A stretch of 42,281 nucleotides of DNA from a virus: the IMG/VR virus record IMGVR_UViG_3300030122_000023. One strand, 5' to 3'. Shown here piece after piece: positions 33,429-41,188 of the stretch. The stretch's first letter is position 1, and each line of letters starts with the position of its first letter. The notes under the pieces were generated by a model that worked only from the letters and a program-made list of their open reading frames with translations, made no database searches and was not told where the DNA came from. Position numbers and translations under genes: made by a program.

Positions 33429-33837
33429 TAAGCAAGTCTCTCAATTTCATTTTTGCCTGTTCCGGCGTAAGTTCTGTGATTGTGACCTCAATTCTCGGAT
33501 TATCCTTATCTACAGAAACATCATGATAAAAATGAGGGATGCATCTGCGGTTATCTTCTTGCAGCACCTTTGTTTTTGTGAGACTGTCCTGAATGAACTT
33601 TGTTGCGCAGGAGAGAATGTTGTCCCCATCTCTCCTGTTGTCTTTTTCAAAACAGTGGTAATAGATCAGTACCGGCTTTTCGATATGTACACCATGGAGC
33701 TGCTGTCTGATACACCACATGATGTGATTCTCATTATCATTTTTTACCTTTCCGCCCTTATATGGGTTGGTGCGATTTGCTGCGGTGTAATTGTTCAAGC
33801 CTTCCAAACGCCCCGGAACTGTAAATTTATACTCCAT
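33409..33837 (-). CDS. rusA: RusA-like Holliday junction resolvase (start at M14 of the listed ORF)
   Basis: VPGRLEGLNNYTAANRTNPYKGG...RRDGDNILSCATKFIQDSL. GGAGGA lies upstream of the ATG at 33837. Confidence 0.6.
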   Translation of the reverse strand: MEYKFTVPGRLEGLNNYTAANRTNPYKGGKVKNDNENHIMWCIRQQLHGVHIEKPVLIYYHCFEKDNRRDGDNILSCATKFIQDSLTKTKVLQEDNRRCIPHFYHDVSVDKDNPRIEVTITELTPEQAKMKLRDLLNDLETG

Positions 33838-34561
33838 CGGCACCGTCCTCCATTCTGATCTGCGCATTGCAATCATTAATCTGCTCTGCTAAATATGCCG
33901 GAAGAGTGTAGCAATCAACAAATTCGTGTGCATCGGCAAGATCCTTGCGTTTCAGTGCCTTGTAGCTTTTCATTTTTCCTTCATCGTCATAAATGCCAAA
34001 CTCACGTTTTAACTGATTGTAAATGTCGCTGAACACTTTTTTATGTACTTTACTATCCCTGTAAGCTTCTGATTTCTTACCGCCGAGCATTTCCACTGCC
34101 TTTCGTCTGACATGTGCAGAAAGTTCGTCTGATTCTGCACCGAACAATGGCATATCGTTTTCAATGGAATATACTTTCTGCTCCACGGTCTCAACCTTAT
34201 GTTCCAACTCCACCGTTCCCTGCGCTAATAATGCGATCTGTTCTAATGCTGTGCGTGGTTTCTGAATAGCATCTTCCATTTCATGGAAACGATTAATATA
34301 CTTTGCTGTGAACTCTGTTCCTTTTACGCCTGTCAGCTTATGGGCAATAAATTCGCAGCCCTTTTTCGTGACAAGATAACAAGGTTTCTGCCGATTTGAC
34401 TTATCTGTATACTCTGAACCCGTAAAAAAATCGGTGTGGGGAATTTTTCCCTCACCAAATTGTAATATGTATCGTCTAATATCTTTCATTAAATCGTTGT
34501 GTGGTTTTCCAACCATCTCCGCAACCTCGATGGATGTAATTGTTTTCTGTTCTAAATTCAT
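33827..34561 (-). CDS. Rha-family phage regulatory protein / antirepressor-like
   Basis: ITSIEVAEMVGKPHNDLMKDIRRY...YLVTKKGCEFIAHKLTG...AKYINRFHEME. Confidence 0.75.
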   Translation of the reverse strand: MNLEQKTITSIEVAEMVGKPHNDLMKDIRRYILQFGEGKIPHTDFFTGSEYTDKSNRQKPCYLVTKKGCEFIAHKLTGVKGTEFTAKYINRFHEMEDAIQKPRTALEQIALLAQGTVELEHKVETVEQKVYSIENDMPLFGAESDELSAHVRRKAVEMLGGKKSEAYRDSKVHKKVFSDIYNQLKREFGIYDDEGKMKSYKALKRKDLADAHEFVDCYTLPAYLAEQINDCNAQIRMEDGADGV

Positions 34562-38284: not shown

Positions 38285-38354
38285 TGTACTTTGTACATTA
38301 TTAATATAGCACTATGTACATATTTTTGTCAATACTTTTTTTGTACAAAGTACA
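38285..38354. promoter_or_regulatory. Three operators of the genetic switch (TGTAC-N3-GTACA dyads)
   Basis: O1 38285..38297 tgtactttgtaca; O2 38308..38320 agcactatgtaca (degenerate); O3 38342..38354 tgtacaaagtaca. Confidence 0.65.
38303..38332 (-). promoter_or_regulatory. Early lytic promoter (TTGACA-18 nt-TATATT with a TGn extension)
   Basis: Read on the minus strand. O2 lies in the spacer and O1 just downstream of the -10. Confidence 0.6.
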
Positions 38355-38411
38355 ATTTTTTTATTTACTTTTTTAACATGTTGTAGTATATTATTAATAG
38401 GAGGTGAGAAA

Positions 38412-38774
38412 ATGCAGAACCGATTAAAGCAAATAAGAAAAAAATTAGGTTGCAACCAGAATGAATTTGCAGAAAAACTCGGTATATCAGTTTCCAATAT
38501 ATCTAGCTATGAAGCAGGAAGAAGAAATCCGTCTGATGCTGTTATAAATCTGATATGCGAAAAATTTAGCGTCAATAAGGAATGGCTAGAGACCGGAAAA
38601 GGCGAAATGTTCATTCAAAAGACCGAGAATGAAAAGATAGCTGAATTTCTTGCAGATGTACTGAAAGCCGGGGAAAAAGACCAGCGGTACAGATTCATAG
38701 CCGCTATCTCAGAACTGGATGAAAACGACTGGAACACAATCCAGAAGCTGGCAGAAAAGCTTGTGAAGAAGTAA
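38412..38774 (+). CDS. XRE/CI-type phage repressor without a peptidase domain
   Basis: LKQIRKKLGCNQNEFAEKLGISVSNISSYEAGRRNPS. 120 aa, no S24 Ser/Lys domain. RBS AGGAGGTGA upstream. Confidence 0.8.
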   Translation: MQNRLKQIRKKLGCNQNEFAEKLGISVSNISSYEAGRRNPSDAVINLICEKFSVNKEWLETGKGEMFIQKTENEKIAEFLADVLKAGEKDQRYRFIAAISELDENDWNTIQKLAEKLVKK

Positions 38775-38778
38775 AAAG

Positions 38779-38811
38779 AAAGACAAGGGCAATGCGCAAA
38801 CCCTTGTCTTT
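38779..38811. terminator. Bidirectional rho-independent terminator
   Basis: aaagacaaggg-11 nt-cccttgtcttt with an A-tract upstream and a T-tract downstream. Confidence 0.8.
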
Positions 38812-38816
38812 TTCTT

Positions 38817-38918
38817 TTATCTTAAAAACCTCTTTATAAATGCATATATGGTTCGGAGATCATCCTCGTCCATGCACTTCTCTATTAATTCTATTATTTT
38901 TTCTTTAAACTCTCCCAT
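38817..38918 (-). CDS. 33-aa ORF downstream of the SOS-box promoter (candidate small antirepressor)
   Basis: AAAGGTGG lies 8 nt upstream. Translates to MGEFKEKIIELIEKCMDEDDLRTIYAFIKRFLR. Confidence 0.4.
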   Translation of the reverse strand: MGEFKEKIIELIEKCMDEDDLRTIYAFIKRFLR

Positions 38919-38949
38919 ATCCAATACCACCTTTCTATTTGATACATAA

Positions 38950-38978
38950 AGTATACGAACGTATGTTCGAAAAGTCAA
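38950..38978 (-). promoter_or_regulatory. Sigma-A promoter TTGACT-17 nt-TATACT with a Cheo (LexA) box CGAACATACGTTCG in the spacer
   Basis: -35 at 38973..38978, -10 at 38950..38955, box at 38956..38969. The box matches CGAAC-N4-GTTCG exactly. Confidence 0.7.
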
Positions 38979-39111
38979 TAACGCATCCATTTGTTTTTAT
39001 CCTAAACTTTCATTTTGCAAAAAAATGTCATAAAAAAATGACAAAAATGTATTGTTTTATAATCATTTTGCTTTATAATTGTAGTATCAAAAGAAAGGGG
39101 AGTTCAAAATC

Positions 39112-39705
39112 ATGAACGAATCAAAAGATACTAAAGTATGTAAACACTGTCAATCGGAGATTCCTAAGAAAGCAAAGATATGTCCAGTATGCAAAAAGAA
39201 ACAAGGTTTACCGAAATGGGCGATTGTTTTAATTGTGATCCTGGTTCTTGCAGCTATCGGTTCTGCTTCTGGTGGAAATTCCGACAATTCAGAAACTACT
39301 ACCACTTCACAATCATCAAGCACAAACGAAACTCAAAATTCGACACCAGAGGTAAAGGAAGTTGAGACCGAATCAGAGCCAGAAATTGAATATACTGCGG
39401 TTGATGTAAGCACCATGATGGATGATTTGAAAAACAATTCAATGAAAGCAGAAGATACTTACAATGACAAATACTTAGAAATTACTGGTCGATTAGATGT
39501 TATTGACAGCAACGGTAAGTATATCGGGGTATTCTCTCAGACAGACAAATTTGCAATTGTTGGTGTCCAATGCTATATAAAAGATGATGATGTAAAAGCA
39601 AAGGTAATGGAAATGTCCAAAGACGATACTATAACGCTCAAAGTTCATATTAAAAACGTTGGGGAAGTTATGGGGTACTCCGCAGATATTATAGAAATAG
39701 AATAG
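39112..39705 (+). CDS. Zinc-ribbon / single-TM protein with an extracytoplasmic OB-fold-like domain (lysogeny-module cargo)
   Basis: CKHCQSEIPKKAKICPVCKKK, TM WAIVLIVILVLAAIG, a Ser/Thr-rich linker, then KAEDTYNDKYLEITGRL. Confidence 0.65.
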   Translation: MNESKDTKVCKHCQSEIPKKAKICPVCKKKQGLPKWAIVLIVILVLAAIGSASGGNSDNSETTTTSQSSSTNETQNSTPEVKEVETESEPEIEYTAVDVSTMMDDLKNNSMKAEDTYNDKYLEITGRLDVIDSNGKYIGVFSQTDKFAIVGVQCYIKDDDVKAKVMEMSKDDTITLKVHIKNVGEVMGYSADIIEIE

Positions 39706-39710
39706 TATAC

Positions 39711-39741
39711 AGTCCCTCTAGTAAATGAGGGACTTTTTTTA
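39711..39741 (+). terminator. Rho-independent terminator immediately upstream of the integrase RBS
   Basis: agtccctc-8 nt-gagggact followed by ttttttt. Confidence 0.7.
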
Positions 39742-39753
39742 AGGGAGTTAAAA

Positions 39754-41094
39754 ATGAACATAGCAATTTATCCAAGGAAATCAAAAAAAGATGATAATTC
39801 AGAATCAATGGAACAGCAAATAGACGATTGTAAAAAGTACATTGATAAAACTTACCATAATGCAAATATAATCGTTTATTCTGGCGATTATGCGATCACA
39901 GGGCATAGCACGGCAAAAAGAAAGGACTTTCAGCGCATGATGGATGATGTCAGAGCAGGAAGAATCAATGCAGTTGTCATTATGAGATACGATCGTATAG
40001 CAAGAAATATGAGAGATTTCTGTAACCTCTATCACGACATGGAAAGCGCAGGATGCAACTTAATATCAGTGAGTCAGCAGATCGATACTTCCACGCCATA
40101 CGGAAAGAACTTCATGTACCAGATGGCAAACATGGCAGAATTAGAATGGGCGGTTATATCTGAGCGATACAAAGACACCGCAGCTTATAAAATCCGTGAA
40201 GGGAAAGCTTACACTGGCAGAGTGCCCATAGGATTTAAAATAGAGAAAATAGATGGTGTAAAGAAAGTCGTACATGATAATGAGGAACAGACAAGGGCTA
40301 TCTTTGATTATTTATTAGCAACCAAAAGCAAGCGCGGCACTGTTTTATGGGTACGTGAAAATTTGATTCCAGACTTCACACGTCACAAATTAGACACAAT
40401 GATAAATTCAGATTTATATATTGGTAAAGTAAGGGAAAATGAAAATTTCTGCGAACCTTATTTTACCAAAGAGCAAATGGAAGAAATAAGAAGTGTCAAT
40501 CAGATAAAATACGCTCCGTCCGGTCATATATATCTATTCAGTGGGTTATTCCGCTGTCCTATATGCGGCAGGAAAATGGCAAGTTTTTATAGCATAGACA
40601 GGAAGACCAAAAAGCACAGGCAATATCAAAGATGCTGGTTTGGTGGAAATGAGAAATTGCACAAAACAAAATTAGTGTCAGAAGCAAAAACAGAAAAATA
40701 TCTTCTTGAAAATCTTGATGCAGCATTAAAAAATCTTGAATTTGATGTAAAAAAAGAAGCAGGTAAACCAAAGCGCAATTTGAATAAGAAACTTAATGAT
40801 GCAATAGCGGAGCGTGACAGACTGAATTACCTTTTTGAAAAAGGAAGAATTGATATTCCAGAATACGAAAAGAAATACAGTGTCTTATCAGAAAAAATAA
40901 ACTCCATAAATGAGGAGTTGTCAAACAACAAAGTTGTAAGGATTGAGGAATTTAAGAAGCAGATACCGGAAGACTGGAAAGTCCTTTACGAACAACTAGA
41001 TCCAAAAGGAAAACAAGAGTTTTGGCATAGAATAATAAAAGAAATTTATTTGAATGAAGCCTTTGAAATTACTGGCTTTATATTTTATATCTAG
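39754..41094 (+). CDS. int: Large serine recombinase (integrase)
   Basis: N-terminal resolvase-type catalytic domain (AIYPRKS...), recombinase domain, zinc ribbon CPICGRK and coiled-coil C-terminus; 446 aa. Confidence 0.85.
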   Translation: MNIAIYPRKSKKDDNSESMEQQIDDCKKYIDKTYHNANIIVYSGDYAITGHSTAKRKDFQRMMDDVRAGRINAVVIMRYDRIARNMRDFCNLYHDMESAGCNLISVSQQIDTSTPYGKNFMYQMANMAELEWAVISERYKDTAAYKIREGKAYTGRVPIGFKIEKIDGVKKVVHDNEEQTRAIFDYLLATKSKRGTVLWVRENLIPDFTRHKLDTMINSDLYIGKVRENENFCEPYFTKEQMEEIRSVNQIKYAPSGHIYLFSGLFRCPICGRKMASFYSIDRKTKKHRQYQRCWFGGNEKLHKTKLVSEAKTEKYLLENLDAALKNLEFDVKKEAGKPKRNLNKKLNDAIAERDRLNYLFEKGRIDIPEYEKKYSVLSEKINSINEELSNNKVVRIEEFKKQIPEDWKVLYEQLDPKGKQEFWHRIIKEIYLNEAFEITGFIFYI

Positions 41095-41095
41095 G

Positions 41096-41146
41096 ACTTG
41101 TACTAAGCAACTATTTCCTAGCGGTTAACATTAATTAGTACAAGTC
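41096..41146. other. Candidate attP (51-bp dyad next to the integrase)
   Basis: gacttgtactaa-27 nt-ttagtacaagtc. No following T-tract, so a poor terminator. Confidence 0.4.
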
Positions 41147-41153
41147 TATTAAA

Positions 41154-41188
41154 AATGGCGATTAGAAATTCTAACCGCCATTTATTTT
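41154..41188. terminator. Bidirectional terminator between the convergent integrase and endolysin genes
   Basis: aatggcg a ttagaa a ttctaa c cgccatt flanked by A and T tracts. Confidence 0.7.

Follow-up and report, generated by a model that had tools for sequence, protein, structure and literature searches.

LexA-repressed antirepressors of non-cleavable phage repressors are well known, and include Tum of coliphage 186, GfoA/GfhA of the Salmonella Gifsy prophages (PMC3121763) and Sar-SroF of SPbeta/phi3T (bioRxiv 10.1101/2025.11.27.690993). The closest known system to the locus described here comes from the extended-arbitrium Bacillus phages phi106, phiW23, BMBtp14, Wbeta and Waukesha92 (bioRxiv 10.1101/2025.11.23.689978; PDB 9sf2, 9iaq), in which the repressor AimC is a short helix-turn-helix (HTH) protein without a cleavage domain and AimX is encoded by a convergent open reading frame (ORF) of 29-80 amino acids (aa). 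In phi106, the aimX ORF directly follows a LexA site, and AimX is required for induction; it binds the C-terminal domain (CTD) of AimC and blocks oligomerisation and DNA binding, recoded and stop alleles excluded an RNA mechanism, and the authors compare the pair with SinI/SinR (bioRxiv 10.1101/2025.11.23.689978). We focus here on a 33-aa ORF in IMG/VR virus record IMGVR_UViG_3300030122_000023, a stretch of 42,281 nucleotides (nt) that was analysed whole and is referred to below as the window. The ORF lies behind a LexA box and converges on the gene of a 120-aa repressor, and we consider it probable that it encodes a small antirepressor which, once derepressed from LexA, would bind the CTD, the putative oligomerisation domain, of this non-cleavable repressor. 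The elements concerned are the following.

38978-38973, minus strand: -35 hexamer TTGACT of the small-ORF promoter, with no variant among 55 aligned relatives.
Between TTGACT and TATACT, minus strand: 17-nt spacer of the small-ORF promoter, TTTCGAACATACGTTCG, read from the sequence.
38956-38969, palindromic: LexA (Cheo) box CGAACATACGTTCG, filling the promoter spacer and identical in all 60 close relatives reaching this far.
38955-38950, minus strand: -10 hexamer TATACT of the small-ORF promoter, from the sequence and a promoter scan.
38934-38927, minus strand: ribosome-binding site (RBS) AAAGGTGG, 8 nt 5' of the ATG at 38918, invariant in relatives.
38918-38817, minus strand: 33-aa ORF MGEFKEKIIELIEKCMDEDDLRTIYAFIKRFLR (stop codon 38819-38817), candidate antirepressor on coding and family evidence.
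38775-38816, both strands: bidirectional intrinsic terminator common to the small ORF and the repressor gene, near-invariant in relatives.
38412-38774, plus strand: 120-aa XRE/cI-type repressor with an HTH (about aa 1-61) and a three-helix CTD (aa 72-118), from Pfam, PHROGs, AlphaFold2 and Foldseek.

AimX/AimC and this arrangement are alike in several respects. First of all, both repressors are short HTH proteins without an autocleavage domain (80-140 aa for AimC, 120 aa here), and both have a helical CTD, which here is predicted and presumed to serve in oligomerisation. Second, the tiny ORF is in both cases convergent on, and at times overlapping, the 3' end of the repressor gene, with a LexA site just upstream of it (in the phi106 family; here the Cheo box). 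Third, AimX is helical, binds the repressor CTD and replaces the partner subunit; the peptide here is predicted to be helical and may bind likewise. In both systems peptide and repressor co-diverge, and the early lytic genes lie divergently on the repressor's other side. Finally, the phi106 repressor (9sf2) is the second-best solved sequence neighbour of the repressor in the window, and both 9iaq and 9sf2 are among its top Foldseek matches.

There are also clear differences from AimX/AimC. The window has no aimR or aimP, the upstream neighbour being a divergent Sie-like membrane protein, and no receptor-sized ORF was found between the Sie-like gene and the integrase gene. The small ORF is served by a sigma-A promoter of its own, whose spacer contains the LexA box, whereas aimX is read through from aimP. 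Sequence matches of the repressor to 9sf2 and 9iaq are confined to the HTH, and its predicted CTD has three helices, unlike that of BMBtp14 AimC with two helices and a beta-hairpin. No sequence similarity of the peptide to a PDB chain could be detected, its profile finding nothing below E = 1.6 among solved chains, which may or may not have included the AimX chain of 9sf2. The hosts are Clostridia (Lachnospiraceae, Oscillospiraceae, C. difficile), not Bacillus. The sequence-only reading, made before any database search, had called a 33-aa antirepressor unusually minimal; this claim is weakened, since a 29-aa AimX controlled by LexA and AimR has been shown in Bacillus phages.

SinI/SinR of Bacillus subtilis (PDB 1b0n) is the mechanistic analogue. 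SinR, too, is a repressor that combines an XRE-type HTH with a small helical domain for multimerisation at its C-terminus, and SinI is a small helical antagonist that mimics this domain and forms a heterodimer. The repressor in the window finds 1b0n_A as a full-length Foldseek match, with a profile alignment extending beyond the HTH (query 3-90). SinI-SinR differs in being a chromosomal biofilm and sporulation switch that is not LexA-controlled, with sinI upstream of sinR on the same strand. In the Tum, Gifsy and Sar systems it is the SOS repressor of the host, and not the repressor of the phage, that senses the damage, and a LexA box controls the gene of an antirepressor whose binding inactivates the phage repressor; the logic would be the same here, where binding of the repressor by the peptide is presumed. 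Their arrangement of a LexA operator over the promoter has its counterpart in the perfect Cheo box within the spacer, a clostridial-type motif at which LexA is predicted to bind. The antirepressors of this class are larger, however, and unrelated in sequence (SPbeta Sar, or YopT, has 72 aa); Sar acts on an integrase-fold repressor as a mimic of DNA, the gene positions differ, and the enterobacterial examples are Gram-negative with CTG-N10-CAG boxes. Tum reportedly has 146 aa, and antirepressors of this class are said to have roughly 70-150 aa.

The promoter and box stand where the sequence-only reading had placed them. TTGACT-17-TATACT reaches 10/12 in the promoter scan, and the box in its spacer matches the Gram-positive LexA consensus CGAAC-N4-GTTCG exactly. 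This is the one exact site in the 42,281 bases, with a mean of 0.03 in shuffled sequence and any match in 3 of 100 shuffles; allowing at most one mismatch still leaves a single site in the window, with 0.51 expected. The 33-aa ORF with its RBS was likewise found behind the box-bearing promoter, and TTGAC-like -35 elements occur at the equivalent place in diverged lineages. Because box, promoter and ORF recur jointly in many diverged lineages, the arrangement is more than chance.

The ORF itself behaves as a gene. A query with the repressor retrieved 64 IMG/VR loci as close relatives, and the 33-codon ORF is intact in 60 of them, that is in every locus reaching far enough, with 10 conservative variants of the peptide. 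The 55 aligned copies hold 18 nucleotide variants, 11 of them synonymous and 7 nonsynonymous, the latter all conservative (F/L/I, T/I, I/V, K/R, K/N). The resulting ratio of nonsynonymous to synonymous change, dN/dS, is about 0.14 (17.7 synonymous and 81.3 nonsynonymous sites; binomial p = 5e-5), which indicates that the ORF is under purifying selection. Third codon positions of the minus-strand ORF coincide with those of an antisense plus-strand ORF (38848-38949), and third-position variation alone cannot separate the two; the coding strand was thus decided by counts of synonymous and nonsynonymous changes per frame and by the openness of the frames in diverse lineages. The minus frame is the coding one, because the plus-strand ORF has 5 synonymous against 10 nonsynonymous changes and because every plus-strand frame is closed in 27 of the 38 diverse lineages. 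In the databases, the gene is represented only by a 57-aa 'hypothetical' protein from an ATG at 38990, upstream of the -35 element; distant relatives do not conserve this extension, and the RBS serves the ATG at 38918.

AlphaFold2 run on the single peptide sequence predicts a helical hairpin of residues 2-15 and 18-32 (predicted local distance difference test, pLDDT, 85). The 33 residues include 8 acidic and 7 basic ones, and the peptide is amphipathic with no hydrophobic span. An SOS-induced type I toxin of the TisB kind was rejected, the peptide being charged and a predicted soluble hairpin, not a hydrophobic membrane peptide. No credible Pfam or PHROG match was found for it, and the profile of its family did not match SinI among solved chains or in Pfam.

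The terminator bears on the nature of the product. Its hairpin, GACAAGGGUU...GCCCUUGUC followed by a U-tract (folding free energy -19.7 kcal/mol, z = -3.7), has a GC-rich stem with A/U tracts on both sides and sits between the stop codon of the small ORF and that of the repressor (38772-38774), so that the small-ORF transcript would meet a bidirectional terminator at the repressor 3' end, as had been read from the sequence. It could instead be the RNA that acts, with SOS-induced convergent or antisense transcription lowering repressor expression and the ORF incidental or secondary. The convergent arrangement of the two genes speaks for this, as does the overlap of the small ORF with the stop codon of the repressor gene in several relatives (L086, L108, L114, L117 and L149; related loci are labelled L with a number), and antisense or convergent RNA was the original model for aimX. 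Here, however, a strong and conserved bidirectional terminator parts the two genes, the peptide is under purifying selection, and its amino-acid motif is kept across lineages with unalignable DNA. At the locus, Rfam gave nothing above the gathering score (a microRNA precursor, MIR408, and a CRISPR repeat came far below it and were taken as noise), and in AimX itself the recoded and start-to-stop alleles place the activity in the protein. An antisense RNA against the repressor 3' end, which the sequence-only reading had allowed for, is therefore disfavoured by the terminator and by the selection on the peptide, and we regard an RNA product as quite improbable.

The proposed antirepressor belongs to a family that direct searches do not readily reveal. 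An exhaustive phmmer search with the 33-mer against 1.84 billion representatives found its own family only, apart from two matches in very long proteins (981 and 2,605 aa), which were disregarded, one being unaligned and one short at 40% identity; a protein search with the 57-aa extended ORF found only relatives at least 86% identical. Since these searches gave only close relatives, homologues were sought by synteny. Repressors 41-51% identical to that of the window, one of them from Lacrimispora sp. NSJ-141, are followed by an uncalled gap of about 300 nt, and each such gap holds a convergent small ORF of the same pattern with a LexA-like box ahead (for example MDYREEIKRLIDKVQNQEKLRIIYRFIRKYIEE and MDYRTEITKLLQRPIEDYILKLIYTFIKRLLD). 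A genome scan with an alignment of the repressor, a narrower one being used as the first was too diverse, gave 80 loci in Lachnospiraceae, Oscillospiraceae and other Clostridia. A hidden Markov model (HMM) was built from ten seed peptides and run against all stop-to-stop fragments of all loci, and it matched almost solely the minus-strand ORF just beyond the repressor stop. In the 80 genome loci, 31 of the 34 matches at E < 0.01 fall into the convergent-downstream class, which makes up 266 of 10,989 fragments (2.4%), and one of the three positional exceptions is a second repressor/peptide pair within the same locus.

The peptide profile thus extends to some 30 further Clostridia prophage lineages, in which the ORF is convergent downstream of repressors 33-52% identical to that of the window. 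The family forms 33 clusters at 70% identity, with members of 29-54 aa and a consensus of roughly (D)Y(K/R)xxIIEL(I/L)xK...N...LxxIYxF(I/V)Kxxl. Members are present in cultured phages, among them C. difficile phiCD38-2 (gp38, 31 aa, 'hypothetical'), phiCD111 and Butyrivibrio phage Arawn (unannotated). In Blautia phage Montmirail, a convergent ORF of 39 aa occupies the same position, with LexA-like sites flanking the promoter; the HMM did not match it, and its membership is provisional, by position and by resemblance judged by eye. A Lachnospiraceae locus (L086 2868-3146 and 4207-4401) has two repressor/small-ORF pairs about 1.3 kb apart, with a LexA-like box, CGAACAAATGTTTG, in one only. In the literature on Lachnospiraceae or C. 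difficile phages, no description of the small-ORF family was found. Judged by these comparisons, the family is new and largely unannotated, widespread, and positionally locked to the repressor 3' end.

The LexA box recurs with this family. In a set of 86 diverse loci (417 kb), upstream segments of 130 nt ahead of the small ORFs (5.07 kb in total) hold 11 of the 27 GAAC-N4-GTTC sites with 0.2 expected, an enrichment of about 55-fold (Poisson p = 4e-16). This strict form occurs in 9 of the 33 peptide clusters, and the clostridial LexA operator, GAAC-N4-GTT(C/T) (PMC4234289), in 14 of the 33, with a background of 0.015 per 130-nt segment. At least 10 lineages with otherwise unalignable DNA have the box between a TTGAC-like -35 and a TATAAT-like -10 element. 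In L067 and L069 the box and the ORF are kept and the sequence farther upstream is different; the box therefore belongs to the small ORF and not to the divergent gene.

One could nevertheless suppose that the box is fortuitous or serves the Sie-like gene, that the small ORF is silent or unimportant, and that induction runs through an Ant/Rha-like protein also encoded by the phage or by another route. In favour of this are the palindromic nature of the box, its place in a shared intergenic region, the presence of the Ant-like gene and the lack of a box in over half of the related lineages. Set against this, 143 nt separate the box from the Sie-like start downstream of it, which puts the box outside any plausible promoter on the plus strand; the comparison of L067 and L069 speaks for the small ORF; the enrichment and the identical in-promoter placement across lineages exclude chance; and the Ant-like gene, which is without a LexA box, belongs to the early operon that is itself repressed. 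We consider this explanation highly improbable, and the box as a regulator of the Sie-like gene was rejected on distance and on the lineage comparisons. That the small ORF is a real, LexA-regulated gene is, on the other hand, a conclusion in which we place high confidence.

Other regulators are found upstream of the small ORF in eight loci (L072 3057-3360, L128 3153-3359, L133 3113-3310, L121 3114-3347, L066 3639-3848, L114 3199-3939, L076 3228-4067 and L149 3803-4567), namely a same-strand 65-77-aa XRE HTH gene, a response regulator or a BRO/Ant-like gene, and in most of the eight no LexA-like box directly precedes the small ORF. A box with one mismatch, CAAACACATGTTCG, does lie between the XRE gene and the small ORF in L066, and L072 has two LexA boxes ahead of the XRE gene itself. 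These loci suggest that the inputs to a common small-protein output are interchangeable. In L102 and L126, a palindrome TGTAC-N4-GTACA lies about 90 nt upstream of the small-ORF start, where other lineages hold the Cheo box, and may be an operator for another regulator. A parallel to such interchangeable inputs is offered by the transcription factor-small ORF induction modules of Vibrio linear plasmid-like phages (Nature 2023, PMC10432266). There, a small protein inactivates the master repressor, as is proposed here, and the sensory input is modular, with the small XRE gene or response regulator just upstream of the small ORF in our LexA-less relatives as the counterpart. The Vibrio modules differ in that they are SOS-independent, with small proteins of about 80 aa and with other repressors and hosts.

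The repressor has no evident means of cleaving itself. Its Pfam matches are to HTH families only (HTH_3, E = 1e-15), Peptidase_S24 was not found by Pfam, and the AlphaFold2 model (pLDDT 90) has a five-helix HTH followed by helices 72-86, 91-100 and 104-118, with no protease fold. The earlier claim that it lacks an S24 autopeptidase domain is thus borne out by both the domain matches and the model. Its Foldseek neighbours include AimC (9iaq, 9sf2), SinR (1b0n) and DdrO.

Several observations tie the peptide to the repressor CTD. Comparison with the fecal phage MT835516.1 delimits a unit of co-inheritance.

38571-39098: co-inherited mosaic module comprising the C-terminal half of the repressor gene, the terminator, the small ORF, the LexA promoter and the intergenic region.

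MT835516.1 matches the window at 95.6% identity over this segment only, its HTH half and next gene being different. In the close family, one CTD (at least 78% identical) and one peptide (at least 91%) occur together with three HTH, or immunity, types (identity down to 39%); these HTH types (window 38412-38570 versus L021, L041 and L001) are fused to the same CTD at a conserved WLETGKGEMF junction. Among diverse lineages, Mantel tests give r = 0.18 (p = 0.001) for peptide versus CTD, and r = -0.04 (p = 0.73) for peptide versus HTH. Aligned by hhalign with repressor residues 87-120, the last two helices, the peptide profile scores 18.8 (P = 7e-4, HHalign probability 26%), compared with 6.2 +/- 1.3 and a maximum of 12.9 for 200 column shuffles and with 11.9 for the reversed profile. 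Both the peptide and the C-terminal end of the repressor are predicted by AlphaFold2 to be helix-turn-helix hairpins. From sequence, this fits a SinI-like mimic capping the repressor's oligomerisation surface.

An SOS-induced peptide could also have a target other than the phage repressor, such as LexA or RecA, the serine integrase (as a directionality factor) or a host function in takeover. Listeria AriS is said to be, with GIL01 gp7, a precedent for the targeting of LexA/RecA. There are examples of small phage proteins that are induced by SOS and act on another target (GIL01 gp7, PMC4551915), and the small ORF lies 836 nt (38918 to 39754) from the serine integrase gene. The family tracks the repressor, however, and not the integrase, since on its far side there may be a tyrosine integrase (L066), a serine integrase (L067-69) or lysis genes (L070). 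Moreover, peptide and repressor CTD co-vary, the peptide being similar to the terminal hairpin of that domain, and in every case the small ORF converges on the 3' end of the repressor gene. Another target is thus unlikely in our estimation, and a recombination directionality factor in particular was rejected, the family being independent of integrase type.

We propose that the antirepressor would work as follows. In the lysogen, host LexA would sit on the Cheo box within the near-consensus sigma-A promoter and keep the transcript of about 165 nt silent. DNA damage would lead to RecA-stimulated self-cleavage of LexA, upon which the promoter would fire and the 33-aa helical-hairpin peptide would be made. 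By imitating the last two helices of the 120-aa non-cleavable repressor, the peptide would bind the CTD, and the resulting heterodimers would be unable to oligomerise on the operators; the divergent early promoter would then be derepressed and the prophage induced. LexA binding, damage inducibility, binding of the repressor by the peptide, and its sufficiency and necessity for induction are steps that we infer from sequence. The central suggestion of the sequence-only reading, a candidate SOS-controlled antirepressor, is at the same time supported by the purifying selection, the positional lock, the enrichment of LexA boxes and the co-variation with the CTD.

Several points weigh against this proposal. 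First, the Mantel correlation between peptide and CTD is weak (r = 0.18), and the linkage could stem from physical adjacency and not from interaction, with breakpoints falling more easily between HTH and CTD. Second, the profile match to the CTD has an HHalign probability of only 26%, and amphipathic periodicity may contribute to it, as the score of the reversed profile (11.9) indicates. Third, about 58% of the peptide clusters have no recognisable LexA box. Fourth, the phage also carries a 244-aa Ant/Rha-type 'anti-repressor' in the early operon. Finally, the peptide profile matched no solved chain or Pfam family, SinI and, as far as its chain was among those searched, AimX included.

The lysogeny module is ordered as serine integrase, Sie-like gene, small ORF, repressor and divergent early operon. 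Its further features, and the Ant/Rha-type gene, are listed here.

38332-38303, minus strand: early (lytic) promoter TTGACA-18-TATATT, presumed target of the repressor, an 11/12 promoter match with TG.
33827-34561, minus strand: Ant/Rha-type 'anti-repressor' of 244 aa (phrog_373, E = 3e-51; Phage_pRha/ORF6C in L159).
39112-39705, plus strand: Sie-like protein with a Zn-ribbon, a transmembrane (TM) segment and a tRNA_anti-like part (phrog_8545), divergent from the small ORF.
39754-41094: serine integrase.
About 41095-41186: attP of the window.

Around the early promoter, at 38290-38355, lie repeats containing TGTACA (TTTGTACA, present twice, TATGTACATA and AAAGTACAA), which are likely to be repressor operators. 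A perfect palindrome of a different kind, TGTCAT-N6-ATGACA, lies in the intergenic region at 39026-39043; it is unchanged in MT835516.1, with one substitution in the 6-nt spacer, and the stretch is nearly invariant across 55 relatives and more conserved than the repressor CTD. The Ant/Rha-type gene lies between NinB-like and RusA-like genes of the early operon. Being inside a repressed operon and having no LexA box, it cannot be the primary damage sensor; its product might reinforce induction. The Sie-like gene is replaced in close relatives by one for a Zn-ribbon/TM2 protein (L001 1529-2071; L158 10628-11071), with the intergenic region up to the RBS nearly identical; it behaves like an exchangeable moron cassette.

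In L159, an integrated copy of the same phage, a fragment of the SpoVAD gene directly adjoins the integrase, and the host flank includes an ABC transporter 98% identical to one of Roseburia inulinivorans (L159 12585-13157 and 14289-18073). On account of these two features, the temperate Clostridia phage in the window is probably a prophage of Roseburia inulinivorans that interrupts the sporulation gene spoVAD.

A further suggestion, which we hold tentatively and think somewhat doubtful, is that the peptide arose in evolution as an offshoot of the C-terminal hairpin of the repressor itself and serves as a common 'output plug' of a large, hardly annotated family of induction switches in gut Clostridia prophages whose sensory inputs have been swapped. 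About 40% of lineages would then take their input from a LexA box, and others from small XRE regulators, response regulators or BRO/Ant genes, over a range including Roseburia, Blautia, Lachnoanaerobaculum, Pseudoflavonifractor, Butyrivibrio and C. difficile phiCD38-2.

To our knowledge, most temperate phages of gut Clostridia have short repressors without an autocleavage domain, and little is known of the way in which these phages sense DNA damage. The module offers a concrete proposal of mechanism for a prophage of an abundant butyrate producer, and it has relatives in cultured systems, namely Blautia producta DSM 2950, Blautia phage Montmirail, C. difficile phiCD38-2 gp38 and Butyrivibrio phage Arawn. 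The principle of a LexA-controlled antirepressor is already known, since the class of Tum, Gifsy and Sar-SroF is well described; what is new is an unannotated family in gut Clostridia, an arbitrium-free form with LexA as its only control, and the hint of interchangeable inputs. The 'mini antirepressor' design of the AimX/AimC type would thus not be tied to arbitrium or to Bacillus. Gene callers usually miss or mis-start the small ORF, giving either the 57-aa call from upstream of its own promoter or none, and the family profile could improve the prediction of gut prophages that are SOS-inducible, for example by antibiotics or genotoxins. If the offshoot suggestion were true, the input found upstream of the mini-gene would predict the inducing signal of each gut prophage.

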